NCBI GenBank assembly: GCA_964016885.1
Contig: OZ024744.1
Coordinates: 74,338,001 to 74,402,000 of the forward strand
DNA length: 64,000 nt
Direction: 5' to 3'
Source: Eledone cirrhosa
Lineage: Eukaryota
The position numbers and the translations under genes were made by a program. The notes beneath the pieces were generated by a model. The model worked only from the letters and a program-made list of their open reading frames with translations, ran no database searches and was not told the DNA's origin. Position 1 is the stretch's first letter. The number at the start of each line of letters is the position of its first letter. Below, piece by piece: positions 8,479 to 54,780 of the stretch.

Positions 8479-11400
8479 GGTCTGTTCAGACGTCTTTTTG
8501 TTCTCTCCCAGTAAGTTGCTTTATTTACCTGTTATAATGATTTGTTGTTAAATTTTTCTCGTGTAAGGGATATAAGCCCTTGGACTTTGCCCTGTGAAGG
8601 GCAATGTATAATATTTATAATATTTGGGCCTTTTGGCCCAAATATTTGAACATTTTACTTTTAAAAATTATATTTAAAAAAAAACATGGTTGCTGTCGTG
8701 TGACAACGGCATAACAGTTGGGAGGAAGGTTACAGAAATTGATACAACAAACACCACCACAAACAACGTGAACAAAGACAACAACACTGAGAACACTAAT
8801 TTTAAGAAAATTACCACACCAACTACAATAACAGCGTCAACCAAAATACAGACAACAGAAAAAAATGACAACAAATGCAACAACGATATTAACACCACTA
8901 ACAAGAAAATAAACAACAACACAATACAAATTGCACCGAAAACAACAACAACGGTGGCACCAAAAATACAACCAACTACAACAGTGATAACAGCAACAAC
9001 ACCAACAACACCGATTGTAGCAGTAGCAACAGCAACAGCACCAACAACTAGACCAGTAGCAACAGTAGCGGCAGCAATAATAGTGCCGCTGAAAAGGGGG
9101 CCACTTCTTTCGCAGGTGTGGGCGGAAATATGGAGACAGTGTTAGACACGGAGGAGGATATGGCAGTCGCAAGAGCCATGGTGACAAGAAATGACAACAG
9201 AGTTTCCCTGAAACCTCCACCCGATTTCTTCAAAGACCAGCAGCTGCGTACGGTGACTTATCGCACCGTAAGCAAAATATCACATAGGGTGGAGAGAGCC
9301 AAGGAAGCTCAAATCCAAAACACCTTGGGGTGCGTTTGGGCGCTTAAAACCCACATCACCCGAGGCAAAAAGTACGCCACAGTAGACGTACTTTTCGCCA
9401 CCCCCAAGAGGTGAAGTCTCACTCTTTGGAAACCATAAAGACTGAGTAGATAGTCTTGGTGTCCTCCTACTGCAGGCAGAAACTTGTGAGAGTCAAAGTG
9501 GCCCAGGTCCAGCCCAACGTGCCCATACCTGGGCTGGCCGAGACTGTACTTGCTGGAATCGAGGACAGGACCACCTTACTGCAAATACAGAGAATGGGAA
9601 GAGAGAACTGGTCAGGTATAGGCATGCAAATGCTAATAAAAACTGACCAGGAGTGCATCGAGGCCATCCCAGATATTATAGACCTCGAAGAATGTCTCCA
9701 ACTCCCTATAAGCGGGGAAGGAAGGCGCCCAAAGTGCTATCTCTGTGGGCAGAAGTGTCACCTCAGGGCCTTCTGCCCGCAGAAGACAGCCCAGAAGAGG
9801 GCTGCCCTCCTTGCGACGCCTGATCCGTTGCTACCAAGAGCAGGGAGGCAACAGAGGCAGAAGACCCTTCCATTGTCAATAGGGTGGCAACGTCCGTGGC
9901 ACTCATACCAAGGCCACGGACAACTAAAACATCGGAAGCAGTGGCGGCAACACCAATAGTCGAAGTAGCTACACCGGCGGCAAAATCGCCGGAGCGGGCT
10001 CCACTACCACCACCAACAGCAATGGAGCTCATGCCCCTCCAAGACGCCACGGAATCCGACATGGAGTATGAGGCGGGAGTGAAGTGGCAAACGGTCGCCA
10101 CAAAAACAAAAAAAAACAAAGAAAACCCTTAGCTTCACACTCCAAAAGCGAAGGCAGACAAAGAGGAGTAAAGGCTGCAAGGAGACTTGCAGCAATACCA
10201 CCACCATCACCATCACCACCACAAACATCAACACCAACAACAACCACACCACCACCAGCATTACCAAAAGCACCAACATCGCAAACACAACAAAGCACAC
10301 ACACCCAAAAGCAACAAAACTACTCCTCCCCCCCAAAAGTACACAGCCATAAACATTGCACACGAAGGAGTAATACAACATATAAAACAACAGACATTAC
10401 AGACTCAAATTACCACACCCCACCAATGTCACGAACATTTTCCAAAAAAACATAAACATTGTGGAAATTAAACTCGAAGACTACAAAAGATTAAAACAAA
10501 AATTCTCCAATTGCGTTGGGGATTTGAGGGGGCTTACTCTCCAAGAGAATCTAGACAGATATCGTCTTGGAGACACTCATGACCAGCCGAATGGACAGTT
10601 CTACTGTCCCTTCTCCACACGATCAAGGTAAGTGATCCCCTTTCTCTCTTACCCCGTTTCTCATCCAACATGGCCGTACTTAGAATAGGCAGTATAAATG
10701 TATGTGGCCTGGGGTCATCTTGGAAGCAGGGTGACCTGCTCAACGACCTCAGGTCACTAAACATAGATGTGGTGGCCATCAGCGAGACCAGAATCTCCGA
10801 AGCACGAACCTTCGCACCAGGGTGGGGGGAATTTGCCGTGCCCTCTTCCTGGACCCAGAAGGTAAGTCGGTGGTGCTAGACGTGACGGGCAGCGAAGGCA
10901 ATACTTTCAGGCTAGAAGCCGTCTACGCCCCAACAGGGGCAGGACGGCCAGATTTCTTCAGACGTCTAGAGACCTTTCTTTGAACGTCCCGCTCTTTAGT
11001 GTTAGTGGGCGATTGGAACGGTATCTTTGATGCACGCTGGGATTGTGTGGGGCTAGTAGACAGAGCAGGAGGGTGTAAAAGCCTCACCAACCTGCTCAGA
11101 CGATTTGAACCGTCTGAGAGGTATAGACTGGATTATCCCAATGTGCCAATGTGGACATGGGCAAACCGCATCTGGTCATCCAGATCGCATTCAGATAGCG
11201 TATTCTGTACGGAAACAGATAAGACTAGTATATTTTGTCCATAATTTAAAGTAGTCGACTACACGGACCACACATTTGTGATCTGTGAAGTTGAATTAGA
11301 TAGACTCCATAGGCAAGGACCCGGCGCGCAAAGCTTACAGAGACCGGATTAGCGAATTAGTTAAGCGTCCGTTGACGGGAGCGATCGTCAACAACAGCTG

Positions 11401-13773: not shown

Positions 13774-13791
13774 ATTATTATTATTATTATT

Positions 13792-13978
13792 GGGCGGTAG
13801 ATTGGCAGTATTGGGAGTGGGTCGGACGCCATGCTTTGACGTATAGAGTTACGGCCCTTGCCATTCTGAGTTCAAATCCCGCCGAGGTTAACTTTGCCTT
13901 TCATCCTTACGGGGTCGATAAAATAAAATACCAGTAATGCATTGGGTAATTGATGGCCTTGTGCCTAACGTAGAAACA

Positions 13979-13979
<1 letters not shown>
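13792..13979 (+). mobile_element. tRNA-derived SINE with (ATT)n tail
   Basis: GGGCGGTAGATTGGCAGTATTGG, GAGTTCAAATCCC, GCCTTTCATCCTTACGGGGTCGATAAAATAAAATACCAGT, GTAGAAACA(ATT)n. Confidence 0.88.
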
Positions 13980-14020
<41 letters not shown>

Positions 14021-14022
<2 letters not shown>

Positions 14023-16670
14023 AGTTGCATTTATCTTGCTTTATGTTCATACGAGTTATCACCAAGTCACAACCAGTGACCTCAAGAGACAACAAGGTCC
14101 GCCATGTTCAAGGAAGAACATACATACTCACACATGCATCTTTAGTGTTTAGACTTGTGATGTACTTATATTGACAGAATCTTCCTTAGTATATGGGCAG
14201 TTCCCATTATTACTATCTTTTGTATTTCTCCTATACGCGGGTTTCCTGGGATCTGCGATAAGTAATCATTAGACCCCTTAGGTATCATTCCCAGAGCGCC
14301 TACAACCACTGGTATTGTTTTAGTTCTCAATTTCCACATTTTTCCTATTTCTATCTCCAGGTCCTTATACTTGCTCAATTTTTCAAATGTTTTTATAGAT
14401 ACATTCTTGTCTATTGGAACAGACATATCAATTAGCAGACATAACCTCTTTTTAAAGTCCTTTAATATTATATCAGGTCTATTTCCATCTATTTTTCGGT
14501 CTGTTTGGATGCTAAAGTTCCACAAGATTGAGATGTGATCTTTTTCAAGTATGGGAGGTGGTTGATGCTCCCACCAATTCTTTTGATGGGGCAGGTCAAA
14601 ATGCTTACACATTATCCAATGTATGTATTGTGCAGCTCTGTCATGCCTGTTTAGGTATTCGGTTGGAGCTATAGGACTGCACATTGAAATTATATGGTCA
14701 ATGGTCTCTGGTTGTTTTTTTGCATACACGGCATAATGGGCTGCATCCATTTTTTTATTATGTTGGCTTGGTAATTTTTTGTTGGCAGACACTGATCTTG
14801 GGCTGATATAATCAGTCCTTCAGTCTCCGATTTCAGTCCAGAGGATGCCAACCACTGATGGGTTAAAGTTTTGTCAACATCAGGATTGTTAGCTCGCTCT
14901 GGGTATTTTCCATACAGAGGCTTTTCTTGCCATTTCTTAGCCAGTTTCTGTAGCAGTTCTTTCTTTGCAGTTACTTTTACCTGCTCTTCTTTTTCTGTGT
15001 TTTCCATTTCAGCAGTAAATGGGACTTCTGAAATTTGTAGTCCATTACTGTATCTTTGTGCATCTTTTGTAATGGAATATGATCTTTTGATGCTTTCGTG
15101 TTTCAAAACGAGTTTGATCATTCAATCATGTGATTCCCTTAGATATGTAGATAATCCAATTGTTGCAGTTTTCAACGCAATGTCTAACTGGATTAACCCA
15201 CGTCCTCCTTCTTTCCTAGGGAGATATATTCTATCTATATCTGCCTTAGGGTGATGCATTCAGTGCATGGTTAAGAATTTTCGAATTTTTGTATCGAGCC
15301 TACGGATCTCTGTACTTGACCAGTTGATGACATTGTAACTGTAGGTTACTACTGGTATGGCAAGCGTGTTTATGGCATCGATCCTATTCCTTGCATTCAA
15401 TTCCGTTCTTAAGATTGCTCTTACTCTGCGGTAACATTCCTTCCTTATCATTTCCCTCATTGTCGAGTGCTTGATTCCGTCTCCTTCACAAACACCTCGA
15501 TATTTGTCAGTTTTTTCTTGATCAAGTTCTCTTATAACGTTCCCCCGATCAAGATTAATGTCTGAACTCTTCAGCAGCTTTCCTCTGGTGAACGTTGCTT
15601 TGGCGCATTTATCTAGTCCAAACTCCATTTTAATGTCATCACTGAACTGCTCCACAGTGGATAATAGCCCTTGCAATTGTTCATCATTTTTTGCAAATAG
15701 TTTCAGGTCATCCATGTAGAACAGGTGATTAATGGTTTTGTCATAGACTTTATATCCATGTTTTGTTTCATTGAGCATTTTACTTAATGGTATAAGTGCG
15801 ATGCAGAATAAAAGCGGTGATAAAGAGTCACCCTGAAAAATTCCACAATTAATATTAACTTCTCCAGCTTCCAGTGATTTTGTTTCACTATTCAAAAGGA
15901 GTGTAGTTTTCCATGTCTTCATACTGAATGACAAAAACCTCCTGACAACGGGGGATATTTTGAAAATTTCTAAACATTTTTCAATCCAACTGTGTGGCAA
16001 ACTATCGAATGCTTTTTTATAATCTATCCAAGCAATCGATAGATTTTTGTGTCTATTATGACAATCTTCCAGTATCATTTTGTTAACCAGAAGCTGATCC
16101 TTACAGCCATATGAGCCTCGTTTACACCCTTTCTGCTCAATGGGAAATAGGTCATTTGTTATCAGGTGGTCATATGTGTATTCAGTTAGGACTGACGTTA
16201 AAATGTTATACATTGTGCTCAAGCAAGTTATCGGTCTGTAATTTTTGGGATTGTTTGTCTCATCATTCTTCGGAAGCAGGAATGTAATGCCGTTAACTAG
16301 CCATGATGGTATCTTTTCTGGCTCCTTAACTATTTCATTGTAAAGTTGGGCTAACAGCTCATGAGACTCTGTGAAGGCATTTATCCAAAAGTTTTGTATT
16401 TTGTCTTTTCCTGGGGATTTCCATTTGCTGGTTTTTCTTAGAGCCAAGCGCAACTGTTCAACTGTTATATTTTCCCATATTTGTTCCTCAAGGTGAGCTG
16501 TATCTTTCATTTGTCTGTCTATCCATGGGGCATGTATGTTATGAACTTTGTCTTCGGCCCAGATCTTTTCCCAGAATTCTTGTACTTCCTCCTTGGGTGG
16601 TATTGATTTAGCAGTTATTGTTGACTTACCAATTTTTCTGTAGAAGTTTCTTTGGTTGTTTTTGAACATA
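14021..16670 (-). mobile_element. 5'-truncated R4/Dong-like element family A
   Basis: ORFs 15260-16669, 14690-15121 and 14166-14792 are near-identical to the 28502-32152 protein; same 3' UTR; (ATT)n on both sides. Confidence 0.96.
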
Positions 16671-16685
16671 TTATTATTATTATTA

Positions 16686-16725
<40 letters not shown>

Positions 16726-17520
16726 CATTTGCATTTATCTTGCTTTATGTTTATACGAGTTATCACCAAGTCACAACCAGTGACCTCAAGAGACAACAAG
16801 GTCCGCCATGTTCAAGAAAGAACATACATATTCGCACATGCATCCTTAGTGTTTAGACTTGTGATGTACTTATATTGACAGAATCTTCCTTAGTATATGG
16901 GCAGTTCCCATTAGTACTATCTTTTGTATTTCTCCTATACGCGGGTTTCCTGGGATTTGCGATAAGTAGTCGTTAGACCCCTTAGGTATCATTCCCAGAG
17001 CGCCTACAACCACTGGTATTGTTTTACTTCTCAATTTCCACATTTTTCCAATTTCTATCTCCAGGTCCTTATACTTGCTCAATTTTTCAAATGTTTTTAT
17101 AGATACATTCTTGTCTATTGGAACAGACATATCAATTAGTAGGCATACCCTCCTTTGAAAGTCCTTCAATATTATATCAGGTCTATTTGCATCTATTTTT
17201 CGGTCTGTTTGGATGCTAAAGTTCCACAAGATTGAGATGTGATCTTTTTCAAGTATGGGAGGTAGTTGTTGCTCCCACCAATTCTTTTGATGGGGCAGGT
17301 CAAAATGCTTACACATTATCCAATGTATGTATTGTGCAGCTCTGTCATGCCTGTTTAGGTATTCGGTTGGAGCTATAGGACTGCACATTGAAATTATATG
17401 GTCAATGGTCTCTGGTTGTTTTTTGCATACACGGCATAAATGGCTGCACCCAATTTTTATTATGTTGGCTTGGTAATTTTTTGTTGGCAGACACTGATCT
17501 TGGGCCGATATAATCAGTCC

Positions 17521-17522
<2 letters not shown>
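16726..17522 (-). mobile_element. Short 5'-truncated R4/Dong-like element family A
   Basis: RLE domain ORF 16870-17388 plus 3' UTR near-identical to 31500-32293; (ATT)n on both sides. Confidence 0.96.
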
Positions 17523-17580
<58 letters not shown>

Positions 17581-17583
<3 letters not shown>

Positions 17584-19265
17584 CTTGAATCTCAGTCATT
17601 GATGTTAGTTAACTGGAAAGTCCGTTGGAATGAATATCAAGCCACTACCTGCAGCCTCAGATATTCAGGACGTATCGGAGGGTTCTTGCTGTTCCCAGCA
17701 AGCATGCCTTTTGAAGCGTTCCAAAAAGCGTGAAGCGGCCGATTTTCTTTAACCATCCCTGGAAACTTTTGGAGATAGTCCCCAGTGCGCCTATGACAAT
17801 CGAGATCACTTTGACTTCATGGCTGTTCCAAATCCTTTTTACCTCCCACTTTAAGTCCTGGTATCGGTTAATTTTCTCCCTCTCCTTCTCTTGCACTCTC
17901 GTGTCGAATGGGCAGGCCACATCCACAATCAGACACGATCTTTTTTCTTTGTCCACAACCACCAGGTCAGGTCTATTGTGTTCCAGTTTCTTGTCCGTCT
18001 GTATCCTAAAATCCCACAGCACCTTCACCTGATCGTTCTCCATCACCGCCTCTGGCTTATGCTCATACCATTTCTCAGAATGTGGTAAATTGTTTACTTT
18101 GCACAGGTGCCAGTGGATTACCCTGCCCATCACATCATGTCTCCAGCCCTTATAGTGGGTCTGGGCTAAGTGTTTACACTCGGATACAATGTGAGCCACA
18201 GTCTCCTCTCTCTCTCCACAGATCCTGCACAGTGGGCTAGCCTCCTCCTTGTAAATATGGTGTTTCAACCACTTCGTTTTGAGGGCCTGCTCCTGAGCAG
18301 CCATTAACATTCCTTCTGTAGCCTTTTTAAGGTCTCCTCTTCTCAACCAGTTCCATGTCTGTGGATCGCTAAATTCAGTTTTCTCAAAGAAGGTACTATG
18401 AAGGGATTTTTCCTGAAGGCTGCTCTTCCTCCTTGATGTTATTTCCTCCTTGGACATTCCCTGGCCTATTGTCCCCTCCTTCAGTACAGTTCTGAGCATT
18501 GGCTCTTACTATCAGTCACGTATTTGTGTAGGTTGTTTTTCTCCATCTGAACACAGTCCTCTATGCTGATAAGACCTCTTCCACCCTCAGATCTCCTTAG
18601 GTAGAGTCTATCGACATCACTCCTCTTGTGGAACATGTTGTAGATAGTCAATAGCTTCCTAGTCTTCCTATCCATTTCTTTTTGTTCAGCAACATTCCAT
18701 CTCAGAATTCCCGCACTGTACCTAATAATAGACACAGCTCGGGAATTTACTGCGCTTATGGCATTTCTGCTGTTCAGATGTGACTTCAATACGCTCCTTA
18801 CTCTCCGAATGTATTCAGTTCTTAACAATTCCTTCATTTTTTTGTTCTTTATGCCATCAGCCTCCAGAACGCCCAAATACTTGTATCCTTCCTCAGAGTC
18901 AATTTCCTTTATCATCTCACCTGTTGGTATCTGGATTCCGTTACTTCTGCTCAACCTACCCCTCCTCATCACAATGACTCCACTCTTACTAATACCAAAC
19001 TGCATACATATATCACTGCTGAAAATACGGACAGTGCCAACAAGCACATCCAACTCCTTCTCACTCTTCCCGAAGAGCTTAAGATCGTCCATGAAGAGGA
19101 GGTGATTGATGGTAAGCCCTCCCTTTCCCAACCCGTATCCTGATCTCACTTTTCGCAGTACACTGGTCAGGGGCATCAGGACAAGGACAAACAACAGAGG
19201 GGACAGGCTATCTCCCAGGAAGATACCTCTCTTGATCTTCACGCTTCCCAAGGATTCTCCAGTTG
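17581..19265 (-). mobile_element. 5'-truncated R4/Dong-like element family B
   Basis: ORFs 18481-19251 and 17657-18499 (one frameshift) near-identical to the C-terminal half of 33450-36842; (ATT)n on both sides. Confidence 0.96.
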
Positions 19266-19497
19266 TATTATTATTATTATTATTATTGGCGACCTACGTA
19301 GTAAATCGTATTATCGTGAGCTCCGCAAAGGTTTGTTATTTCCGTTTGTTAAAAATTGCCATTTATGGAAAATGTTTATTGTTAACCATATATAAGCGCA
19401 CATACATTGTTTTCCGAAAAGGACACCCAAAAAGATTGGGGCCTTGTGCCCAAAATTTAAACTTTTATGATTATCAAAAAATTTCTTTGAGAAAAAA

Positions 19498-21457
19498 ATG
19501 GCTAATTCACCTCTGCACCAAGCAGCTGAAAGCCTTTCTCACAAATTAACACCTCACACCGACACCACCATTGTAAATGTTACTACGTTTGCCAACACTA
19601 CAAAAAATATAAGCAGTAGCAATATTTTAAATTTGTCTCAGGCAGACATTCATTTCCCGCCATTACCAATGACTGCAGGTGTTAAAGCCTCCACCACAAC
19701 CGCGACAACAGAAACAAAAGAAGAAAAAAATAAATTAAATCCTGATGTCGAAATGAAATCAAGCAAAATGGACTCTTCCCCACCAAAGACGACCGACGTT
19801 ACCATCACCACAACTGAAGCTAAAATTAATATTAACACAAATAACGATAGCAACAACAACAACAATGATATTATAAAAACCACGCTCAGTTTTGCCAGAG
19901 TAGCAAAACAGTTCGAAGCATTTACGGTAACTCAGGAGGATTTAGAAAATGCCAAACAAATGGTAAAGAAAGATGGATACAGGGTCAGCCTCACCCCCCA
20001 CCTAATAAAATGGAGCATCGGTGCCTATGCACCGTGTCGTATCGAATAATAAATGTAAAATCGCGCCGAATGGAACGGGCATCCGAGTCCCAAATCAAAA
20101 AAGCTTTGGGACATGTGTGGGCAAGAAAAACCCACATCAGACGTGAGCAGAAGTATGGAACCGTGGACGTGTTCTTTGAAACACCAGAGGAGGCTAGAGA
20201 ACGCTCCATGGCTCCATTAAGAAGTGACGACTTCACACTCGTCCCAAGCTATTGTGGCCAGAGACTAGTAAAGATCAGGGTGACCCACGTTCCACCGGCC
20301 ATCGAAATTCCCTGGATAATAGCGGCCGTCCTCGCCGGCATCGAAGCCAACACAAAAATAACAGCAATAGCAAAAGAAAAGCAGGAGAACTGGTCCGGAT
20401 CTGGGATGGAGCTCCTGATCCAAGCGGACCAAAAAAGCATTGAGGAGATCCCAGAGGTAATAGACCTCACTGACGGCAGCCACCTCACGGTAATTGTCGA
20501 GGGCAGAAGACCTAGGTGTGTGGTTTTTGGTGAAGGAACCCACCTAAGGGCTTTCTGCCCTCAGGCTAAAAGATTGAGGCCACCTCTCCTACCCACCCCA
20601 GTGACACAACCATCAACACCACCAGTAGCAGAGATGGCAGCAACAACTGTAGCAGCAACAACAGAAGCAACTATAACAGCAACAAACCCAGCAACAGTAG
20701 CAAAACCAACACCACCACCACCACCAGCAAAACCAACACCACCACCACCCAACACTTCAGAACTAGCACCAGCGGGTACACCATCCACCACGCCACAAGC
20801 AAAACTAACGCCTGTGGAGGATTTTACACTCCCCGGCCTATCACAACTGGAGACAGATTGTGACGACGAGGAGTGGGAAACGATATCCGGAAAAAAAAAA
20901 GAAACCAAAAAAGAAAAAATTCTCTTCCTTCCCCCTCCAAAAACAAAATACAGAGGGAAACAAATAAATTAAGAAACAAAAAAGTTAGGACAGATATGCC
21001 ACCATCCACACCAGCATCACCAACCCCATCAACCCAAACACCAACACCATCACCATCATTAACCCCAACACCACCATCACCTACACCACAAAAGTCACCA
21101 AAATGCGAAACAGAAACAAACCCACAACAAACGCAAACAAAACAAATCAACCAAAACGATACACACTACACAGCATTAAATTTGAACAACAAGCAATTAT
21201 TACACTACATCCAACACAACACCAGCATCACAGAAAAAGACTACACAACAACCCCAACATTCACACCACCTCCACACATACAAATCACTCGCATCACACA
21301 GAAAACGTACATGACACTAAAACAAAAATTCCCCAAAGACATCGGAGATTTCCGACAAGCACTCTCCAGGAGGATTTATAAGGACATCCTTCCTGAGGAG
21401 GCCACAAGCAGTGAAAAGGATGGAAAAACCGTCCTTTCCCTACGAGAAGTAAGGTAA
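19498..21457 (+). pseudogene. Tx1 ORF1 (gag-like RNA-binding protein) split over three frames
   Basis: ORFs 19498-20049, 20010-20972 and 20873-21457 each show homology to ORF1 pieces at 8686-10631; RRM-like YGTVDVFF and a degenerate knuckle CVVFGEGTHLRAFC; frame breaks at a C-run (~19995) and an A-run (~20891). Confidence 0.85.
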
Positions 21458-25193: not shown

Positions 25194-25326
25194 TAATAAT
25201 TGTAATATTATATATAATAACACATTCCTTCAAATTTAGTTCCTTTACTTTTAAGTAAATATATCTTGCTGACTCATAATTAAAATAAACGTTATTTCTT
25301 TTGAAGTTAGACTTATGATTAATATA

Positions 25327-25506
25327 ATTGTTTCTACCTGTGGTACAAGGCCAGCAATTACCCCAGTGCATTACTGGTACTTTATTTTATCGACCCCGTA
25401 AGGATAAAATGCAAATTAACCTCGGCGGAATTTGAACTCACACCGTAAAGGGCCATAATTCTATGATGCAAAGGATAGTGTCTGACGCTCTACCGATACT
25501 GGCAAT
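25327..25506 (-). mobile_element. tRNA-derived SINE
   Basis: Reverse complement of the 13792-13979 family (TTTTATCGACCCCGTAAGGAT, GGAATTTGAACTC). Confidence 0.85.

Positions 25507-27366: not shown

Positions 27367-27370
<4 letters not shown>
26675..27370 (+). mobile_element. 5'-truncated degenerate RTE-clade (Rex3/Expander-like) element with (AAT)n tail
   Basis: KYL.AVFTSDGK..VELNTRI.GAGAVMRS; MTETIRSQIQSAKMGFLRR; LLLRIERSQL*YYGHV; ends in (AAT)n at 27368-27421. Confidence 0.8.
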
Positions 27371-27422
<52 letters not shown>

Positions 27423-27425: not shown

Positions 27426-30400
27426 GGGAAGAAGACGCACGAGGTGGTAGAACGTCACGAAATTGCTCCCGTAAGTTTTTTGATTTTTAACATATTTAAA
27501 TCAATTGTGAAAGAACAATTCTTAGCACAAATGTTGCATAAAGGCACCGAATGAGGTCCCATAAAGTTTCGGATCCATATTATATTGTTGTATCGCTCAA
27601 ATATTCAATTTTGTATTATATATTTTGTATTCAAAAAAAGAAAATGGTTATAAATGGAACAAAACACCCTCTGTCTACACTATATAGAACAGCGGCAATT
27701 TCAATTTCACCAACACCAGAAACTTGATACACTACCTATCCCATCACACTAAATATAACGGCAACTTCACCGGCATCATAATAATAATTACTATTATTAT
27801 TGTCTCAAATTTAAAAAAATGTTTAATTCAAATTTTACGGGAATATGTCAACACAAAATATAATGAAAATATATATTAAACATACGAACACAAACTCATA
27901 GATACTATATCAGTAACCACAACACCACCACATCCATCATCGCCACCACTCATTCAATGCTACTGACACTATTCCCCTGTTAACTTGAGAGAGAAAAGGG
28001 AAGGTGGTGGTAGCACTAGACAAGAGAGAGGCTAGCAAAAGATATAAATAGATTGACTTGGTAACCTTGCCACGGACAAATGTCTACATCAACAATTATG
28101 GGACTGCTGGCTCACCCCTTCCTCACCAACAATATAAAAAGCCCCGGCACCACCACCGACATAGCCAGCAGCAATAACAGCCAACTACAACAAAAAGTAT
28201 ATTATATTATTGTAATGCACTGGGTGATTGCTGGCCTGGAGTGGAGACAATTATTAATAATTTCATTCTTAAGCCACGCAATGCTCACATTAAGGAACCA
28301 CTCATGATAATAACAATTTAAAAAAAACAACAAAAAGAAAACCCCGTGACCAAGAAATACCGGGATGGCGGCCGGCGGGGAATAGCCATGTCTCTAGGGG
28401 AGAACGACCCCTCTAGTCTTGGTTGACACTCGTTCTAGAAGTGGTAACACGAAAAGATTACCCCTTGGCGGATAAGGATAAAACGCGACAAAATAAAGTA
28501 GATGTCTAATGATGAAATCTCATACCGGATCGGCCGTCACCCGGGTAAAAAAGGGCCGCGTCCCTCAGAGAGGAACCAGACTGGGGTCGAAAAATCAGCT
28601 AATGGTTCAAACCTTCCCATCACTTCGGAGCTGGAGACCTCCCATAACCGGAATACTCCTACTGTTGGCCCTCCATGCTCACCACCAAGAAATCCAAAGA
28701 AAAAGAGAGAAAAATGGTCAAGGGAAGATAATAAAGAAGTCCTTGAGGCTTTCTACACTGCCATGTACTACCCATCAAATACATCGAATACAGAGCAAAC
28801 ATATATCAACTGGAAAAAGAAACATCCCGAAAACAGAGGCTATATTGACAGTAACAAACTAGCCAATATACGAAGAAATATTGTAAGAAAAAAGTTACTA
28901 ACTGATATAGAAATTGATCAGATCAAGCTAGTAGCACAAAGTCAGCGAAGAGAAAATGAAGCATGTGTCAGTGAAAACGAGGTAAAATGTAACACTTCGA
29001 ATCCCAGAGTTGGGGCGGAATCACTGGCAACAGAACAAATTAAAGAAAGGAGCGAAAAAGTGGAGGGAGTGCATGCTCAGGATGAAACGCCAAATGAAAA
29101 TAATGAGATCGTAAATGATAAAGAAATGAATGAGAATGAACTTGCCAACTTGAAGGATGAAATTATGATCGAATGGATGAAAATGAAAGAATCTGACATG
29201 GGGGAACGAGACACCCTCCCTAAGATCCAGAACTCCAAACAGAACCAAAAGATAATACACAAGACAAACATAATTCTCAAAAACATTATCATCACAAACA
29301 AACTAAGCATTACTGACTTAAATCATCTCTATTATGCATCGGCTAAAGTCACCACTCACTTATGTGGAGTGAAGATGAAAAAACAAAGGAATTCCCACAA
29401 GAAATCTACTTGGCAAGATAACATCAATCGCCAAATAAACCTTCTCCGATCTGACATAGAAATTTTAACAAACTATAAAGTAGGTGAACATGTTAAACAA
29501 ACTAAACTTAGAAAATTGAAAAAAAAGTACAGTATAAGATCAACATGTGACATAGACATGCTGATAGAAACAATCAAGCAAAAAGTGTCGGCCAAAGCTG
29601 CTCGTATAAGGCGCTTTGAAAAACGATCTAGATTCTATAAGGACAATAATATGTTCAAAAACAACCAAAGAAACTTCTACAGAAAAATTGGTAAGTCAAC
29701 AATAACTGCTAAATCAATACCACCCAAGGAGGAAGTGCAAGAATTCTGGGAAAAGATCTGGGCCGAAGAAAAAGTTCATAACATACATGCCCCATGGATA
29801 GACAGACAAATGAAAGAAACAGCTCACCTTGAAGAACAAACATGGGAAAATATAACAGTTGAACAGCTGCGCTTGGCTCTAAGAAAAACCAGCAAATGGA
29901 AATCCCCAGGAAAAGACAAAATACAAAACTTTTGGATAAATGCCTTCACAGAGTCTCATGAGCTGTTAGCCCAACTTTACAATGAAATAGTTAAGGAGCC
30001 AGAAAAGATACCATCATGGCTAGTTAACGGCATTACATTCCTGCTACCGAAGAATGATGAGACAAACAATCCCAAAAATTACAGACCGATAACCTGCTTG
30101 ACCACAATGTATAAAATTTTAACATCAGTCCTAACTGAATACACATATGACCACCTGATAACAAATGACCTATTTCCCATTGAGCAGAAAGGGTGTAAAC
30201 GAGGCTCATATGGCTGTAAGGATCAGCTTCTGGTTAACAAAATGATACTGGAAGATTGTCATAATAGACACAAAAATCTATCGATTGCTTGGATAGATTA
30301 TAAAAAAGCATTTGATAGTTTGCCACACAGTTGGATTGAAAAATGTTTAGAGATTTTCAAAATATCCCCCGTTATCAGGAGGTTTTTGTCATTCGGTATG

Positions 30401-32293
30401 AGGACATGGAGAACGACACTCCTTTTGAATAGTGAAACAAAATCACTGGAAGCTGGAGAAGTTAACATTAATTGTGGAATTTTTCAGGGTGACTCTTTAT
30501 CACCGCTTTTATTCTGCATCGCACTTATACCATTAAGTAAAATGCTCAATGAAACAAAACATGGATATAGAGTCTATGACAAAACCATTAATCACCTGTT
30601 CTACATGGATGACCTGAAACTATTTGCAAAAAATGATGAACAATTGCAAGGGCTATTATCCACTGTGAAGCAGTTCAGTGATGACATTAAAATGGAGTTT
30701 GGACTGGATAAATGCGCCAAAGCAACGTTCACCAGAGGAAAGCTGCTGAAGAGTTCAGACATTAATCTTGATCGGGGGAACGTGATAAGAGAGCTTGATC
30801 AAGAACAAACTTACAAATATCTAGGTGTTTGTGAAGGAGACGGAATCAAGCACTCGACAATGAGGGAAAGGTTAAGGAAGGAATGTTACCGCAGAGTCAG
30901 AGCAATCTTAAGAACGGAATTGAATGCAAGGAATAGGATCGATGCCATAAACACGCTTGCCATACCAGTAGTAACCTACAGTTACAATGTCATCAACTGG
31001 TCAAGCACAGAGATCCGTAGGCTCGATACAAAAATCCGAAAATTCTTAACCATGCACAGAATGCATCACCCTAAGGCAGACATAGATAGAATATATCTCC
31101 CTAGGAAAGAAGGAGGACGTGGGTTAATCCAGTTAGACATTGCGTTGAAAACTGCAACAATTGGATTATCCACATATCTAAGGGAATCACATGATTGGAT
31201 GATCAAACTCGTTTTGAAACACGAAAGCACCAAAAGATCATATTCCATTACAAAAGATGCACAAAGATACAGTAATGGACTACAAATTTCAGAAGTCCCA
31301 TTTACTGCTGAAATGGAAAACACAGAAAAAGCAAAGCAGGTAAAAGTAACTGCAAAGAAAGAACTGCTACAGAAACTGGCTAAGAAATGGCAAGAAAAGC
31401 CTCTGTATGGAAAATACCCAGAGCGAGCTAACAATCCTGATGTTGACAAAACTTTAACCCATCAGTGGTTGGCATCCTCTGGACTGAAATCGGAGACTGA
31501 AGGACTGATTATATCCGCACAAGATCAGTGTCTGCCAACAAAAAATTACCAAGCCAACATAATAAAAAATGGGTGCAGCCCATTATGCCGTGTATGCAAA
31601 AAACAACCAGAGACCATTGACCATATAATTTCAATGTGCAGTCCTATAGCTCCAACCGAATACCTAAACAGGCATGACAGAGCTGCACAATACATACATT
31701 GGATAATGTGCAAGCATTTTGACCTGCCCCATCAAAAGAATTGGTGGGAGCATCAACCACCTCCCATACTTGAAAAAGATCACATCTCAATCTTGTGGAA
31801 CTTTAGCATTCAAACAGACCGAAAAATAGATGCAAATAGACCTGATATAATATTGAAGGACTTTCAAAGGAGGGTATGCCTGCTAATTGATATGTCTGTT
31901 CCAATAGACAAGAATGTATCTATAAAAACATTTGAAAAATTGAGCAAGTATAAAGACCTGGAGATAGAAATTGGAAAAATGTGGAAATTGAGAACTAAAA
32001 CAATACCAGTGGTTGTAGGCGCTCTGGGAATGATACCTAAGGGGTCTAACGACTACTTATCGCAAATCCCAGGAAACCCGCGTATAGGAGAAATACAAAA
32101 GATAGTACTAATGGGAACTGCCCATATACTAAGGAAGATCCTGTCAATATAAGTACATCACAAGTCTAAACACTAAGGATGCATGTGTGAATATGTGTGT
32201 TCTTTCTTGAACATGGCGGACCTTGTTGTCTCTTGAGGTCACTGGTTGTGACTTGGTGATAACTCGTATAAACATAAAGCAAGATAAATGCAA
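27426..32293 (+). mobile_element. Full-length R4/Dong-like RLE non-LTR retrotransposon family A
   Basis: Bounded by (AAT)n on both sides; single intact ORF. The 5' boundary assumes the shared leader belongs to the element; the minimal start is ~28340. Confidence 0.9.
28502..32152 (+). CDS. R4/Dong-like polyprotein (Myb-like N-terminus, RT, CCHC, restriction-like endonuclease), 1216 aa
   Basis: KWSREDN..KLANIRR..LLTDIEI; NYRPITCL, WIDYKKAFDS, GIFQGDSLSP, FYMDD; CRVC-x8-H-x4-C; RHD, NRPD, IDMSVP, EKLSKY; uninterrupted. Confidence 0.97.
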   Translation: MSNDEISYRIGRHPGKKGPRPSERNQTGVEKSANGSNLPITSELETSHNRNTPTVGPPCSPPRNPKKKREKWSREDNKEVLEAFYTAMYYPSNTSNTEQTYINWKKKHPENRGYIDSNKLANIRRNIVRKKLLTDIEIDQIKLVAQSQRRENEACVSENEVKCNTSNPRVGAESLATEQIKERSEKVEGVHAQDETPNENNEIVNDKEMNENELANLKDEIMIEWMKMKESDMGERDTLPKIQNSKQNQKIIHKTNIILKNIIITNKLSITDLNHLYYASAKVTTHLCGVKMKKQRNSHKKSTWQDNINRQINLLRSDIEILTNYKVGEHVKQTKLRKLKKKYSIRSTCDIDMLIETIKQKVSAKAARIRRFEKRSRFYKDNNMFKNNQRNFYRKIGKSTITAKSIPPKEEVQEFWEKIWAEEKVHNIHAPWIDRQMKETAHLEEQTWENITVEQLRLALRKTSKWKSPGKDKIQNFWINAFTESHELLAQLYNEIVKEPEKIPSWLVNGITFLLPKNDETNNPKNYRPITCLTTMYKILTSVLTEYTYDHLITNDLFPIEQKGCKRGSYGCKDQLLVNKMILEDCHNRHKNLSIAWIDYKKAFDSLPHSWIEKCLEIFKISPVIRRFLSFGMRTWRTTLLLNSETKSLEAGEVNINCGIFQGDSLSPLLFCIALIPLSKMLNETKHGYRVYDKTINHLFYMDDLKLFAKNDEQLQGLLSTVKQFSDDIKMEFGLDKCAKATFTRGKLLKSSDINLDRGNVIRELDQEQTYKYLGVCEGDGIKHSTMRERLRKECYRRVRAILRTELNARNRIDAINTLAIPVVTYSYNVINWSSTEIRRLDTKIRKFLTMHRMHHPKADIDRIYLPRKEGGRGLIQLDIALKTATIGLSTYLRESHDWMIKLVLKHESTKRSYSITKDAQRYSNGLQISEVPFTAEMENTEKAKQVKVTAKKELLQKLAKKWQEKPLYGKYPERANNPDVDKTLTHQWLASSGLKSETEGLIISAQDQCLPTKNYQANIIKNGCSPLCRVCKKQPETIDHIISMCSPIAPTEYLNRHDRAAQYIHWIMCKHFDLPHQKNWWEHQPPPILEKDHISILWNFSIQTDRKIDANRPDIILKDFQRRVCLLIDMSVPIDKNVSIKTFEKLSKYKDLEIEIGKMWKLRTKTIPVVVGALGMIPKGSNDYLSQIPGNPRIGEIQKIVLMGTAHILRKILSI

Positions 32294-32316
32294 ATAATAA
32301 TAATAATATTAATAAC

Positions 32317-32388
<72 letters not shown>

Positions 32389-32394
32389 GAATAA

Positions 32395-35300
32395 GGGAAG
32401 AAGACGCACGAGGTGACGGAGGTCATGAAATCGCTCCCGTAAGTTTTGAATTTTTAACATATTTAAATCATTTGTGAAATAACAACTCTTAGTACAAATG
32501 CTACGTAAAGCACCTGGCTTGAGCCCCAAAAAAATTCGGACCCAAAATATATTGTTATAAGGCTCAAATATTCAAATATTCAACTTTGTATTGTACACTG
32601 TATATCCCAAAAAAAATGGCTATAAATGGAAGAAGAAGACCCCCCCCCCCTCCTCTCCTCTGGCTACACTATATAGGACAGCTAAACTCACCAACACCAG
32701 AAACTAGATACACCACCCACCCCATCATCTGTGTACACTAAACACAACAGCATTTTCACCTTCACCGCCACCGCTCACTACGGCCATCATTACCACCACT
32801 ATCCCATCACCGCCGCCACCACCCCCTGACTCCTTCACTGCTGCTGCCACCGCTACAGCACCATCACTACAGTAATACGGTCGCATCACCGCCACCACTG
32901 CCTCGGTATCGACATCACCACCACCACTGTCTCAGTATCGCCAACGCCGCCAGTCTCTGCTGGCTACCACTTCCACATTATAGAATTCCTACTACTAACA
33001 AAGAGGAAGGCATCAAAATATATAGATAGACTCAAAAGAAAAAAGAAAAAACAAACAACAAAAGCAGCACAGCAACAACAGTAAAAAACGAGAAAAACAG
33101 AGAAAAACAAAAACAAAAAAAGAAACCCCAAAAACGTAAAGAAAATAAGAATGAAGAGAGAAGCAGGCGGACGGACAGAGAAGAGGGGGGAAAAAGTAAA
33201 ACTTAAAAAACAAAAACTAAGTCAGACATTCGAATACTACATTACAATGAAACTTATGCTTATTCATTTTTGGGGCCCTTTCTGCCCGTGTGTTTGTTTG
33301 TTTATGTGTGTCCGTATACAGCGTGGTGATAATGCCACACAAGGGCCAAGTGGGATGGCGGATCCACAGATGGCTATGTAAACATACATTCGCCAATCCT
33401 CGATAAGAGTGTTTAAATATCGAACATAAACAGTTCGAATAACGGTGAAATGGAGACTAGAACGTCATGTGACAGACTCTCACCCAACAGGTGCCCCCTG
33501 GCTCAGCAGCAGGAACCTGACTGTCAACCAAATACTGCTGATGTTGGAGGAAGAAGAAGAAGGAAAGGGGCCAGAACCAACTGGACGAAAGAATTGAATA
33601 GAACTGTTATGCAATGCTACCTGAAAAGTAACCCCAAGGAGAGGGGCTACAGGAGACGGATGCATAACATCTGGAACGAGATTGGTTTATTTAAATTAGA
33701 TGAACAAAAATTGGCCGGGCAGGCTCGGGTAATAAAAACTAATGGGTGGATAAGCGAGCTGGAACTGGAGGAACTGAGCAGAGAGAACGGCTTGGAGATG
33801 GCGGGTGTAGTATGCCAGACAAGCGAGCCGGCGGGAAATGAAGGTGAGGAGGTCCTGAGAACGGAGGAACCACCCGAAGCAGACAATGATCTGAATACTG
33901 AGATAAATAATACCTGGAACAGAGATACGGCCACTGAGGAGATGAATGCTGACGGGCTAGGACAAGATTCGGTTGACATCCTAAATTTAGTGGTAGATGA
34001 GTTGAACAATGATAGTGGGAGACCTATGAACCTAAGATTTGTAGACAGGAAAAAGTTAAAAGAAACAACAGCTAAGGTAAACAAAGTCATCCCATACCTT
34101 GAGGCGAGGAGTCTTCACCAGTGCAACAATATCCTCAAAGCAACAGCAAATACGGTGAGGAAACTACTTGGTATAAAAGCGAGAGGAAACAACAGACAAG
34201 AAAGAGCAGAGCCGTGGTGGAAGAAGCGACTGAGTGGGCAAATCGGGGAAATGAGAAATGACATAGGAAAGCTTGAGTCACTACTGAATGGGACACTAAA
34301 AAACATAGGCACTAAAAATAGACTGGAAATAAAATACAAAACTAAGAGTAAAAAGCTAAATATTATCATAGAGGAATTGAAGCAACGCATTGTAGCAAAG
34401 AGCGCCAAAATCAGGCGATACGAGAACAGAGTCAGTCAGTATAAACAGAACCGCATGTTCGACAACAACCAGAAGATGCTGTTTGGACAGCTTGAGGGGA
34501 AAGAAAGAGGCAACGACTTGATCCCTGGGGCGGAACAAGCTAAAACATTCTGGAGAGGAATATGGGAGCAGGATGTTAGACACAATGCCCAGGCAGGGTG
34601 GATTGAGACAGTACAGAGGGAAATCGGTGAGCAGGCACAGCAACAGACTGATTTGAGTATCACAGTTGAAACTCTTAAGGGGCAAGCCAAAAAACTAACC
34701 AACTGGAAATCACCAGGCCCAGATGGTGTGCAGGGGTATTGGATTAAACATTTAACATCCCTCCACCCGAAGCTGACGGCCATGTTCAATGACTGCTTGG
34801 TGTCGGGTGAGGTGCCAGAGTGGTTGACAAAAGGTACCACAGTTCTGATAATGAAAGACCGAATCAAGGGTAATGATGTTACCAACTATAGACCTATCAC
34901 ATGTCTGCCCGTAATGTGGAAACTGTTGACGAGCATTGTGTCTGAGGAAATCTACCATCACCTCCACACAAACAACTTGTTGCCGGACGAACAGAAAGGA
35001 TGCCGAAAAAAGTCACGTGGTACAAAGGACCAGTTGCTTATTGATAAGATGGTAATGGGGAATTGCAGGAGGAGACACACTGATCTTGCCATGGGATGGA
35101 TAGACTACAGGAAGGCATTTGACATGGTGCCTCATTCCTGGATCACCAACAGCCTGGAGATCTTCAGGGTGGCAGATAACATCAGACAGTTGCTGGGCAG
35201 GAGTATGGGGTCCTGGGAGACAGAGTTGACATCAACTGGAGTATCCTTGGGAAGCGTGAAGATCAAGAGAGGTATCTTCCAGGGAGATAGCCTGTCCCCT

Positions 35301-36918
35301 CTGTTGTTTGTCCTTGCCCTGATGCCCTTGACCATTATGCTGCGAAAAGTGAGAGCAGGATACAAGTTGGGAAGGGGAGAGCTTACCATCAATCACCTCC
35401 TCTTCATGGACGATCTTAAGCTCTTCGGGAAAAGTGAGAAGGAGTTGGATGTGCTTGTTGACACTGTCCGTATTTTCAGCAGTGATATATGTATGCAGTT
35501 TGGTATTGGTAAATGTGGAGTCATTGTGATGAGGAGGGGTAGGTTGAGCAGAAGTAACGGGATCCAGATACCAACAGGTGAGATGATAAAGGAAATTGAC
35601 TCTGAGGAAGGATACAAGTATTTGGGCGTTCTGGAGGCTGATGGCATAAAGAACAAAAAAATGAAGGAATTGTTAAGAACTGAATACATTCGGAGAGTAA
35701 GGAGCGTATTGAAGTCACATCTGAACAGCAGAAATGCCATAAGCGCAGTAAATTCCCGAGCTGTGTCTATTATTAGGTACAGTGCGGGAATTCTGAGATG
35801 GAATGTTGCTGAACAAAAAGAAATGGATAGGAAGACTAGGAAGCTATTGACTATCTACAACATGTTCCACAAGAGGAGTGATGTCGATAGACTCTACCTA
35901 AGGAGATCTGAGGGTGGAAGAGGTCTTATCAGCATAGAGGACTGTGTTCAGATGGAGAAAAACAACCTATACAAATACGTGGCCTATAGTAAGGAGCCAA
36001 TGCTCAGAGCTGTACTGACGGAGGGGACAGTAGGCCAGGGGATACCCAAGGAGGAAATAACATCAAGGAGGAAGAGCAGCCTTAAGGGAAAATCCCTTCA
36101 TAGTACCTTCTTTGAGAAAACTGAATTTAGAGATCCACAGACATGGAACTGGTTGAGAAGAGGAGACCTCAAAAAGGCTACAGAAGGAATGCTAATGGCT
36201 GCGCAGGAGCAGGCCCTCAAAACGAAGTGGTTGAAGCACCATATCTACAAGGAGGAGGCTAGCCCACTGTGCAGGATCTGTGGAGAGAGAGAGGAGACTG
36301 TGGCTCACATTGTGTCCGAGTGTAAACACCTAGCCCAGACCCACTATAAGGGCTGGAGACACGATGTGATGGGCAGGGTAATCCACTGGCACCTGTGCAA
36401 AGTAAACAATCTACCACATTCTGAGAAATGGTATGAGCATAGGCCAGAGGCGGTGATGGAGAACAGTCAGGTGAAGGTGCTGTGGGATTTTAGGATACAG
36501 ACGGACAAAAAACTGGAACACAATAGACCTGACCTGGTGGTTGTGGACAAAGAAAAAAGATCGTGCCTGATTGTGGATGTGGCCTGCCCGTTCGACACGA
36601 GAGTGCAAGAGAAGGAGAGGGAGAAAATTAACCGATACCAGGACCTAAAGTGGGAGGTGAAAAGGATTTGGAACTGCCATGAAGTCAAAGTGATCCCGAT
36701 TGTCATAGGCGCACTGGGGACTATCTCCAAAGGTTTCCAGGGATGGTTAAAGAAAATCGGCCCCTTCACGCTTTTTGGAACGCTTCAAAAGGCATGCTTG
36801 CTTGGAACGGCAAGAACCCTCCGATACGTCCTGAATATCTGAGGCTGCAGGTAGTGGCTTGATATTCAATCCAACGGACTTCCCAGTTAACCAACATCAA
36901 TGACTGAGATTCAAGGAA
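32395..36918 (+). mobile_element. Full-length R4/Dong-like RLE non-LTR retrotransposon family B
   Basis: Bounded by (AAT)n on both sides; intact ORF; begins with the leader homologous to 27426-27970. Confidence 0.9.
33450..36842 (+). CDS. R4/Dong-like polyprotein (Myb-like N-terminus, RT, CCHC, restriction-like endonuclease), 1130 aa
   Basis: NWTKELN..MQCY..EQKLAGQAR..WISELELE; NYRPITCL, WIDYRKAFD, GIFQGDSLSP, LFMDD; CRIC-x8-H-x4-C; RHD, NRPD, VDVACP; uninterrupted. Confidence 0.97.
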   Translation: METRTSCDRLSPNRCPLAQQQEPDCQPNTADVGGRRRRKGARTNWTKELNRTVMQCYLKSNPKERGYRRRMHNIWNEIGLFKLDEQKLAGQARVIKTNGWISELELEELSRENGLEMAGVVCQTSEPAGNEGEEVLRTEEPPEADNDLNTEINNTWNRDTATEEMNADGLGQDSVDILNLVVDELNNDSGRPMNLRFVDRKKLKETTAKVNKVIPYLEARSLHQCNNILKATANTVRKLLGIKARGNNRQERAEPWWKKRLSGQIGEMRNDIGKLESLLNGTLKNIGTKNRLEIKYKTKSKKLNIIIEELKQRIVAKSAKIRRYENRVSQYKQNRMFDNNQKMLFGQLEGKERGNDLIPGAEQAKTFWRGIWEQDVRHNAQAGWIETVQREIGEQAQQQTDLSITVETLKGQAKKLTNWKSPGPDGVQGYWIKHLTSLHPKLTAMFNDCLVSGEVPEWLTKGTTVLIMKDRIKGNDVTNYRPITCLPVMWKLLTSIVSEEIYHHLHTNNLLPDEQKGCRKKSRGTKDQLLIDKMVMGNCRRRHTDLAMGWIDYRKAFDMVPHSWITNSLEIFRVADNIRQLLGRSMGSWETELTSTGVSLGSVKIKRGIFQGDSLSPLLFVLALMPLTIMLRKVRAGYKLGRGELTINHLLFMDDLKLFGKSEKELDVLVDTVRIFSSDICMQFGIGKCGVIVMRRGRLSRSNGIQIPTGEMIKEIDSEEGYKYLGVLEADGIKNKKMKELLRTEYIRRVRSVLKSHLNSRNAISAVNSRAVSIIRYSAGILRWNVAEQKEMDRKTRKLLTIYNMFHKRSDVDRLYLRRSEGGRGLISIEDCVQMEKNNLYKYVAYSKEPMLRAVLTEGTVGQGIPKEEITSRRKSSLKGKSLHSTFFEKTEFRDPQTWNWLRRGDLKKATEGMLMAAQEQALKTKWLKHHIYKEEASPLCRICGEREETVAHIVSECKHLAQTHYKGWRHDVMGRVIHWHLCKVNNLPHSEKWYEHRPEAVMENSQVKVLWDFRIQTDKKLEHNRPDLVVVDKEKRSCLIVDVACPFDTRVQEKEREKINRYQDLKWEVKRIWNCHEVKVIPIVIGALGTISKGFQGWLKKIGPFTLFGTLQKACLLGTARTLRYVLNI

Positions 36919-36928
36919 TAACAATAAC

Positions 36929-36960
<32 letters not shown>

Positions 36961-37194: not shown

Positions 37195-37392
37195 GATTTC
37201 TTCTATAGGAACAAAGCTTGGGAAAGTCGGTTAAATCGACCCCAGTACGTTACTGGTGATGTATTTATCGACCCCGTAAGGACGAAAGACAAAGTTGGCC
37301 TTGACGGGATTTGAACTCAGACTGTAAAGGACCGTAACTCTATGCTACAAAACATGGTGTCCGATCCTACCGATACTGCCAATCCACCGCCC
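37195..37392 (-). mobile_element. tRNA-derived SINE (a second, more degenerate copy lies at ~37000-37160)
   Basis: TTTATCGACCCCGTAAGGA, GGGATTTGAACTCAG, CCGATACTGCCAATCCACCGCCC. Confidence 0.85.
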
Positions 37393-37525
37393 TCATCTCC
37401 TATATAACAATTTTCATCATAACAATAAGAGACTATAATTTACACTATGCGAAACTGATCTGGTTAAACTCTTTGGAATATATATATATATATGTATGTA
37501 TGTATGTATATATATATATATTTTA

Positions 37526-48914: not shown

Positions 48915-49723
48915 AGTCGATGCCTGACATACCTTGACTATGTTGATGGTTATAATTTAGTCATGGCAGTGATGAGTTATGACAAAACTCCATATTTATA
49001 TACCTTAAATTGAAACATGAAAAATTACATATAATACAGAGGGTGCGTATGAGAATGTGTAAAAAGATATATAAATAACTAATAATATATAATACATAAA
49101 CGTATATAACTGTTAAAAATTTAAATAATAATAATATATGCATACCTCAATTATTGCAAATAGTGGAAGTGAGAGGTCGAGATAGCAAATCATGAGGAAA
49201 GAGAGAAAAAGAAAGAGATTTGATCGTAGGAACGAGAGAAGGGAGAAATGATCAAATGATAGAGAGAGGAGAAAATAAGTTTAATAGTATAAACAAAGGG
49301 AGGAAGATATGCATTGTAACGTATAAATAGCGTATAATTAGATAAGTGGGAAAGAATATTTAGGCACATGATGCGTAACCGTTTATTTTCAAATCTTAAG
49401 TTAATTAGAAATAGTCAATTAATAAAATGACATAAGATTTTAGACTATAAAATTTGAAAGGATATATACATATATATATATATATATATATTTCGTTTCT
49501 GAATTTGTTTAGCAAGATTCTTTATCTGAAATCGTGTGTTGAAACCGATATTGTTATACTTTGGGAGGGTCATGTTGCCAATAAGAAACACACGCACCAG
49601 TTGCTTTCACTTCAATTTATTATATATTTATAAATTTATAAATTTATAAATTTACAAATCTACAAACTTATAAATTTCTGGTTGGTTGGTTGGTTCCACA
49701 ACCAGATAGTTGTTTATATATAT

Positions 49724-49768
49724 AGTCATAGTCCTTTCGTCACACACTCTGTGACCTCTTCAGTGACT
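49724..49768 (-). ncRNA. pLTR hammerhead motif (inverted copy)
   Basis: Reverse complement of 50189-50233. Confidence 0.7.
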
Positions 49769-50188: not shown

Positions 50189-50233
50189 AGTCACTGAAGA
50201 GGTCACAGAGTGTGTGACGAAAGGACTATGACT
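50189..50233 (+). ncRNA. pLTR minimal hammerhead motif
   Basis: AGTCA-CTGAAGA-G-GTCACA/gagtg/TGTGAC-GAAA-GGAC-TA-TGACT; extra G before stem II, very short stem III. Confidence 0.72.

Positions 50234-54724: not shown

Positions 54725-54780
<56 letters not shown>

Follow-up and report, generated by a model that had tools for sequence, protein, structure and literature searches.

How do two retrotransposon families whose proteins are only 36% identical come to begin with closely related DNA, and what might that DNA do for them? The question is raised by a stretch of 64 kb from the 3.0-Gb assembly of Eledone cirrhosa (contig OZ024744.1), called the window here and used for all coordinates, in which two intact elements with just one open reading frame (ORF) each, A and B, stand head to tail and are bounded by (AAT)n arrays. 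Our reading, which we consider quite probable, is that their common leader, homologous to the 5' untranslated regions (UTRs) of Tx1 elements and repeatedly exchanged, would be a captured internal promoter that replaced self-cleavage of the hepatitis delta virus (HDV)-like type, the fold that lies before the ORF being probably disabled.

Both elements are assigned to the R4/Dong clade, a label that rests on anatomy and target site; the homolog search returned no named reference. Homologs of the A protein (55-66% identity) have names that are absent or uninformative, and the B protein is about 40% identical to the same 22 proteins. A domain search found RVT_1 in both proteins and a weak zf-RVT match in that of B alone, and no Exo_endo_phos (apurinic/apyrimidinic endonuclease) domain in either. 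What we take to be the CCHC finger and the PD..D motif of a restriction-like endonuclease (RLE) were picked out of the two translations by reading. In the window (AAT)n flanks A and B on both sides, and it also precedes most copies elsewhere.

A leader common to two distant families

The sequence-only reading of the window had stated that the two elements open with the same short motifs behind (AAT)n (27426 and 32395), that their leaders are closely related and their ORFs only distantly so, and that both leaders contain an adenine run followed by an ATG (27644 in A, 32616 in B); all of this was confirmed. The leaders are 73.2% identical over 381 columns (E value 1.5e-60) and 84% identical in the first 225 nucleotides (nt; 183 of 218 aligned columns), with a local score (z = 96) that was reached by none of 200 shuffles. 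Outside the leader the best DNA alignment between A and B covers 53 nt, and there is no other long stretch. A conserved motif lies within the leader core of A at 27465-27475. The shared block, first described as some 350 nt long, is present as described and turned out to be longer in older copies: behind the core, A aligns well with B up to 27771 and patchily beyond, and in older copies the block is plainly shared as far as an (AAT)n relic that old A has at about 880 nt from its start. A unit of about 325 nt in the B 5' UTR forms two to four tandem repeats in many young B copies, two units lying within 1.5 kb in 9 of 21 copies sampled by position.

Leader identity was also set against synonymous divergence, as the sequence-only reading had proposed. 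Whereas the first 225 nt are well preserved, only 39 of 125 four-fold sites match (31%, against 26% expected at saturation). Because these sites are near saturation, and because the B protein is so much further than the A protein from their common set of relatives, the split between A and B is old and the leader far younger.

The leader belongs to the Dong elements. Its 23-nt core has 1854 exact matches in the genome (control 0), and among the first 70 of these by position, 67 continue into a Dong ORF (31 of A, 36 of B) and unrelated sequence interrupts the other three; Tx1 follows none of the 70, and none stands solo with a 3' end of its own. An older version of the leader runs on into B sequence at 29 of 30 matches. 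Approached from the other side, through 30 A and 30 B copies chosen by a pattern of the ORF N-terminus (1303 and 2753 matches, respectively), leader sequence was found on 22 A and 16 B copies; the other 8 and 14 end at scattered points, most of them right on (AAT)n, and none of the 60 has an alternative 5' end. Thus neither of two outcomes that the sequence-only reading had set against itself, a leader that is mostly solitary or its absence from most full-length Dong copies, was found. An independent short element that inserts in (AAT)n and precedes Dong by chance would be conceivable in a genome whose AAT arrays accumulate many elements, but the 67 leaders are joined to the ORF without an AAT array closing them, the remaining three are interrupted by unrelated sequence, and the older version passes into B sequence likewise; the position-ordered sample already contradicts this explanation, to which we give almost no probability.

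Furthermore, leaders have passed between A and B repeatedly. A tree built on 71 leader rows requires five switches of the A/B label, at least three of them forced by well-supported branches, and monophyly of the leaders on A bodies is rejected (approximately unbiased test, p = 1.2e-4). One junction, which maps to about 28023 in A, fuses a 5' block of A type with the stump that is left of an older B leader; it occurs in 126 exact copies, and each of the 12 loci inspected continues into a B ORF that is 90-94% identical to the one in window B. The opposite chimera, an A body headed by a young B leader, occurs in 58 exact copies on 10 contigs at one junction and in 5 at another; all 15 inspected loci combine a B-type 5' part with an A ORF at 94-99%, in varied flanks. 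The exchange between Dong families that had been proposed is thereby supported by tree, test and amplified chimeric junctions, and its back-and-forth course goes beyond the first proposal. Inheritance of the leader from a common ancestor, with conservation and no exchange, has a precedent in the conserved 5' termini of divergent L1 families of fish, frog and lizard (PMC5381506). It is nevertheless extremely improbable, since the four-fold sites are near saturation beside a leader at 84%, the two proteins differ so much in their distance to the same 22 relatives, and leader clades cross ORF type at junctions that are themselves multi-copy.

The oldest leader versions seen are on B copies with ORFs at 84-88%, and the oldest leader-bearing A seen is at 92%. 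Ordered by ORF divergence, the leader would have been on B first, then on A, back on B and again on A. The (AAT)n relic ends the shared block of old copies just before A's own proximal UTR, which fits a nested insertion of A into a B UTR; template jumping is the alternative by which A may have gained its leader.

Some further loci deserve mention. Three junctions of B leader and A body lie about 4.97 kb apart at G000:C5:88763443-88773423, suggesting a tandem array of full-length chimeras. At L330 (G000:C1:124824426-124827454) a B ORF is joined in mid-reverse transcriptase (RT) to the 5' part of an A ORF, with no AAT array between them. A 75%-diverged candidate for an A element that predates the capture (L333), bounded at its 5' side near the fold, was rejected, as its best relatives are ordinary leader-bearing or truncated A copies. 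Of three runs whose contigs were compared with the 5' 2 kb of B, two that are labelled as two other organisms (X5, X6) contain pieces near-identical to B, and X6 also has leader nt 1-130.

Relation of the leader to Tx1 5' UTRs

The sequence-only reading took the leader for a captured Tx1-type 5' UTR and ORF1 start, on the strength of two Tx1 elements in the window. These copies, at 8479 and about 19285, do have the same layout as the leaders; in direct pairwise comparison, however, the likeness is weak, with z values of 4-5 for the 8479 copy and no signal for the other. The convincing link comes from other Tx1 families. In contexts other than A and B the leader core motif has nine matches (control 0), two being truncated A copies and seven non-Dong 5' ends, of which two have sense Tx1 ORF1 similarity downstream. 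One of these, used as a query, returned 30 loci and with them an old, decayed, ATT-oriented family: 15 have sense similarity to Tx1 ORF1, endonuclease or RT within 1.7 kb, three are old Dong B leaders and 12 are unclear, counting L280, which had been read in the wrong orientation. An nhmmer profile built from 18 old Tx1 5' UTRs, with no Dong sequence included, matches exactly four places in the window, namely the two Tx1 UTRs and the leaders of A and B (E values in Table 1), and nothing in the reversed window or reversed loci.

In addition, the resemblance grows with the age of the Dong copies. Local scores to the old Tx1 family climb from 57 to 94 and from 72 to 104 (reverse complement, 27-41), and identity to the majority of its columns is 65% for the oldest B leader, 59% for window B and 54% for window A. 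The similarity is colinear over about 165 nt and not confined to one motif. Several Tx1 families, as distant from each other as 46-66%, have the common layout, and there the ATG opens ORF1; the ATG of Dong, by contrast, is an orphan that lies 800-900 nt ahead of the ORF. On this comparison of sequences the leader is homologous to Tx1 5' UTRs, and the use of the ATG in several distant Tx1 families, together with its orphaned state in Dong, points to transfer from Tx1 to Dong. Of the first proposal, therefore, the 5' UTR part stands, while the ORF1 start is a putative one, suggested by the position of the ATG and a low-complexity composition. Tx1 elements carry related 5' UTRs, the best match being the 65% to the old family's column majority, and no Tx1 family with the exact leader was found.

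A number of points weigh against the reading given at the outset. The oldest leaders, at 65%, are no closer to the old Tx1 column majority than is the living Tx1 element a (66%). Eighteen Dong leaders form one clade (support 97/99), which a short tree places inside no particular Tx1 family. It was by a leader motif that the seed of the Tx1 profile was first chosen, which makes this seed partly ascertained; the bias terms of nhmmer, too, are high on such AT-rich DNA. A reciprocal Dong-only profile missed the window's two Tx1 UTRs, yet matched 50 non-Dong sites in the loci examined. The 5' tip has been seen on Dong only: when a direct donor was sought with patterns and DNA queries taken from the oldest leaders and the 5' tip, every match inspected was Dong (e.g., 6 of 6; 17 of 17 Dong-type UTRs), the 403 matches of one pattern search having been counted and not inspected. 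The peptide after the ATG gave low-complexity protein matches to Tx1 ORF1, none of them significant.

These modest identities (54-65%), the AT-rich sequence and the missing donor might suggest that the leader is native to Dong, its likeness to Tx1 reflecting convergence on core-promoter motifs of the host in AT-rich DNA, or else transfer from Dong to Tx1. We consider this improbable, because the similarity is colinear and increases with Dong age, because the ATG opens ORF1 in Tx1 families that are far apart and is orphaned in Dong, and because a third RLE family of the window has a different 5' end, without a profile match in 20 loci.

A putative promoter and the folds before the ORFs

If the leader came from Tx1, what does it do? 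It likely acts as an internal promoter, as suggested by its homology to UTRs of the L1 clade, its fixed start in unrelated flanks, the way its first 110 nt have been conserved and the fact that new versions have spread. A and B start at the same base in unrelated flanks, and the 5' tip is retained in 149 of 201 leader contexts; nt 1-110 are the best kept (82%, against 70% in the following 118 nt). Internal promoters are established for L1 (PMC5381506), and one is assumed here for Tx1 UTRs. The leader itself gave no Rfam match and folding z values near 0. The GTAAG motif was tried as a used splice donor and rejected: of 201 distinct leader contexts, 197 fall under the 15 most frequent continuations, and all of these are the unspliced sequence or point variants. 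At three loci (L006, L012, L021) the first 8-20 nt of the leader are duplicated at the 5' junction, as template jumps finishing reverse transcription would give.

The following course of events may be envisaged. A Dong B ancestor would have ended up downstream of a Tx1 5' end, in the sense orientation, through insertion into the AAC/AAT-rich 5' coding region or through a template jump, and a read-through RNA consisting of the Tx1 5' end and Dong B would have been copied as one unit, a capture of the 5' transduction or template-jump type. A would have acquired the block from B, probably by inserting at the (AAT)n relic in the B 5' UTR, which is plausible since both use AAT in the same orientation. 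Later, B would have regained the block in its diverged A version, and A would have received once more a young version from B, the captured Tx1 promoter replacing ribozyme-based formation of the 5' end. In its fullest form, this account would have an RLE lineage switch from ribozyme-processed co-transcription to autonomous transcription through the promoter of an L1/Tx1-clade neighbor that occupies the same microsatellites, exchange that promoter at least three times between two families long separated, and keep the dead ribozyme for translation initiation; we put this forward tentatively, as having slightly less than an even chance.

In the silkmoth Bombyx mori, Dong self-cleaves by an HDV-like ribozyme at its 5' end (PMC3774820). 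No such structure lies at the exact 5' end of A or B, and HDV-like folds occur instead before each ORF, at position 923 of A and about 995 of B, an addition to what the first reading had noticed. The fold of A is the sole strict match to the HDV topology on both strands of the window and was equaled by none of 300 shuffles. It has P1, P2, P3 and L3 with a one-pair P1.1, and one P2 pair is G-C, G-U and A-U in 31, 4 and 53 of 88 copies, respectively. Its joiner is non-canonical in the covarying register, judged by what we take to be the canonical HDV spacing, and an alternative register keeps a C in 86 of 88 copies; an earlier descriptor that required the canonical joiner found nothing in A or B. 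In B, old and young copies agree at 93% across the fold, compared with 87-90% across the ORF. At the place expected for the catalytic C, 101 of 102 copies have an adenine; P3 is mismatched, P1 partial and P1.1 absent, and the codon that directly follows the fold, ATG in young copies, is GTG or GAG in those that are older. Both folds are probably relics of an ancestral 5' ribozyme, that of B being predicted not to cleave. The 12-15 upstream ATGs of the leader region suggest that such a relic may be kept for internal initiation of translation; for ribozyme-driven translation we draw on a review passage (PMC12203849).

To the points counted above against the joint reading, others must be added here. 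P1 of B is poor and its P1.1 missing; the strict descriptor was written after the A candidate had been seen, and B fails it; an Rfam search gave no ribozyme match; and neither fold is unusually stable. P1-P3 are intact in A, so that A might still cleave. Moreover, the order of events rests on ORF divergence and not on a rooted test, and the search for a full-length ancestor without the leader found none for either A or B.

The main rival explanation is that the leader is a Tx1-derived passenger, that Dong is still co-transcribed from its flanks, and that the leader persists because it is carried along or helps integration at the 5' end. This would accommodate the intact pseudoknot pairs of A and the other scraps, for example SINE (short interspersed element) pieces, that the 5' UTRs gather. 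Unprocessed read-through, however, would not give a common start base in unrelated flanks, and the predicted cleavage site is the start of no A copy among 30. That the leader is best kept in its first 110 nt, and that new versions of it spread as subfamilies at least three times, also tells against the passenger explanation and leaves it unlikely, though less so than any other alternative considered.

Neighboring elements and known systems

Table 1. Positions of A, B and the compared Tx1 UTRs within the window.
Feature	Positions	Strand	Remarks
(AAT)n target array preceding A	27368..27422	+	
Element A	27426-32292	+	Full-length Dong
Leader core of A	27426..27647	+	Homolog of Tx1-type 5' UTR, ending in A-run-ATGG (ATG 27644); Tx1-only profile E 5.7e-7
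Remaining shared 5' block of A	27648..28210	+	Decayed Thr/Pro-rich stretch behind the orphan ATG
SINE 3'-tail fragment	28212..28255 (end approximate)	+	Fixed in younger A, within the 5' UTR; older copies L143, L161 lack it
HDV-like nested double pseudoknot of A	28348..28436	+	P1 (first pair G.U), P2, P3, 7-nt L3; joiner non-canonical
Dong A ORF	28502..32152	+	1216 amino acids; RT, CCHC finger, PD..D RLE motifs
(AAT)n array separating A from B	32293..32387	+	
Element B	32395-36916	+	Full-length Dong
Leader of B	32395..32760	+	Homolog of Tx1-type 5' UTR (ATG 32616) and decayed downstream peptide; Tx1-only profile E 7.1e-12
B 5' UTR unit, about 325 nt	32554..32880	+	Includes A-run-ATG; single copy in window B
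HDV-like fold of B	33389..33449	+	P2, imperfect P3, L3, P4 hairpin; abuts start codon at 33450
Dong B open frame	33417..36842	+	1141 amino acids stop to stop; RT, zf-RVT-like CCHC finger, RLE motifs
(AAT)n array past B	36917..36960	+	
5' UTR of Tx1 element a	8479..8690	+	After ATT-type site; comparison; Tx1-only profile E 3.9e-14
5' UTR of Tx1 element b	19285..19500 (start approximate)	+	Comparison; Tx1-only profile E 1.8e-9

AAT arrays serve several elements as a shared landing site at the loci examined. At 13979-19290 of the window, three 5'-truncated Dong copies (two of A, one of B) are stacked on the minus strand in one AAT array, back to back with Tx1. The third RLE family (5259-7170; also L389, L399 and L401), with 31-38% amino acid identity to A and B, targets (ATAC)n. 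Its 5' end is fixed and peculiar to the family, the UTR behind it is repetitive and AT-rich, and the first bases of the element are similar to those of Tx1 b. A SINE-like repeat of about 190 nt inserts in ATT arrays (8279-8478, 13774-13981, 25320-25506, 37220-37393 and 60163-60404), and many old Dong B copies hold entire repeats of this kind inside the 5' UTR; in young A a piece of its tail has become fixed. A Penelope-like element (RT, GIY-YIG) occupies 49548-54732, with flanking repeats of about 430 nt in direct and inverted orientation and a frame broken by a single stop at 52261.

Replacement of 5' UTRs within L1 (PMC5381506) and non-autonomous R2/R1 hybrids (PMC3414825) are already known from the parts of the literature drawn on here. 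A literature search that did not extend to Repbase, subscription papers or the supplements of the octopus annotation papers, where these 5' ends may be described, turned up neither a 5' UTR derived from Tx1 on an autonomous RLE family nor exchange between families so distant. The words "UTR," "promoter" and "chimer" are absent from the main text of PMC13282606 as far as it was covered, and PMC8967140 and PMC9115989 name Dong merely as a family in the passages covered. Expression of RLE retrotransposons outside transcribed loci is poorly understood, and the present case offers a testable answer, a promoter borrowed from another clade whose home is the same microsatellite. Dong-R4, as annotated in Octopus vulgaris, tops the groups of long interspersed elements in recently active insertions (1129 of 2533; PMC13282606, Table 1), an abundance that the borrowed leader may explain if families there carry it. 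Exchange of the putative promoter also emerges as a recurrent process among families with a common target, in which leader versions form a datable series, and the natural ribozyme variants are available for separating cleavage from translation functions.

The arrangement resembles several known systems in part and differs from each. Dong of B. mori likewise has a single ORF with RT, CCHC and RLE, a TAA-repeat target and an HDV-like fold upstream of the ORF; its ribozyme, however, sits at the 5' end and self-cleaves, whereas here the fold lies 900-1000 nt inside, a Tx1-type leader sets the 5' end, and B lacks the catalytic C (PMC3774820). Mammalian L1 has serially gained new 5' UTRs, and the tandem repeats of young B, of about 325 nt, recall the UTR monomers of rodent L1; those swaps took place within L1 lineages, in contrast to the present module, which would have left an L1/Tx1-type element for one of the RLE kind and moved between families with only 36% identical proteins (PMC5381506). 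The R2/R1 hybrid SIDEs of Drosophila, and the U12 and tRNA additions to the 5' side of R2, are comparable as cross-clade chimeras at a shared target and as foreign RNA at the 5' end of an RLE element. SIDEs are non-autonomous, though, and there the R2 ribozyme is the donated part, whereas the families described here are autonomous, with intact ORFs and more than 1800 leader copies, and are the recipients of a putative promoter (PMC3414825). SVA, with its MAST2 promoter, and the 5' extensions of SINEU show how a master copy can take up upstream sequence by 5' transduction and found a subfamily; these too are non-autonomous, and the MAST2 promoter belongs to a host gene, unlike a putative internal promoter carried by every full-length copy (PMC4494074). 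Finally, L1Tc of Trypanosoma cruzi combines an internal promoter and an HDV-like ribozyme in the 5' region of one non-LTR (long terminal repeat) element, as may be the case here; in its Pr77 both are active in the same first 77 nt, whereas in A and B they would be separate modules of different origins, with putative functions (PMC3383444).

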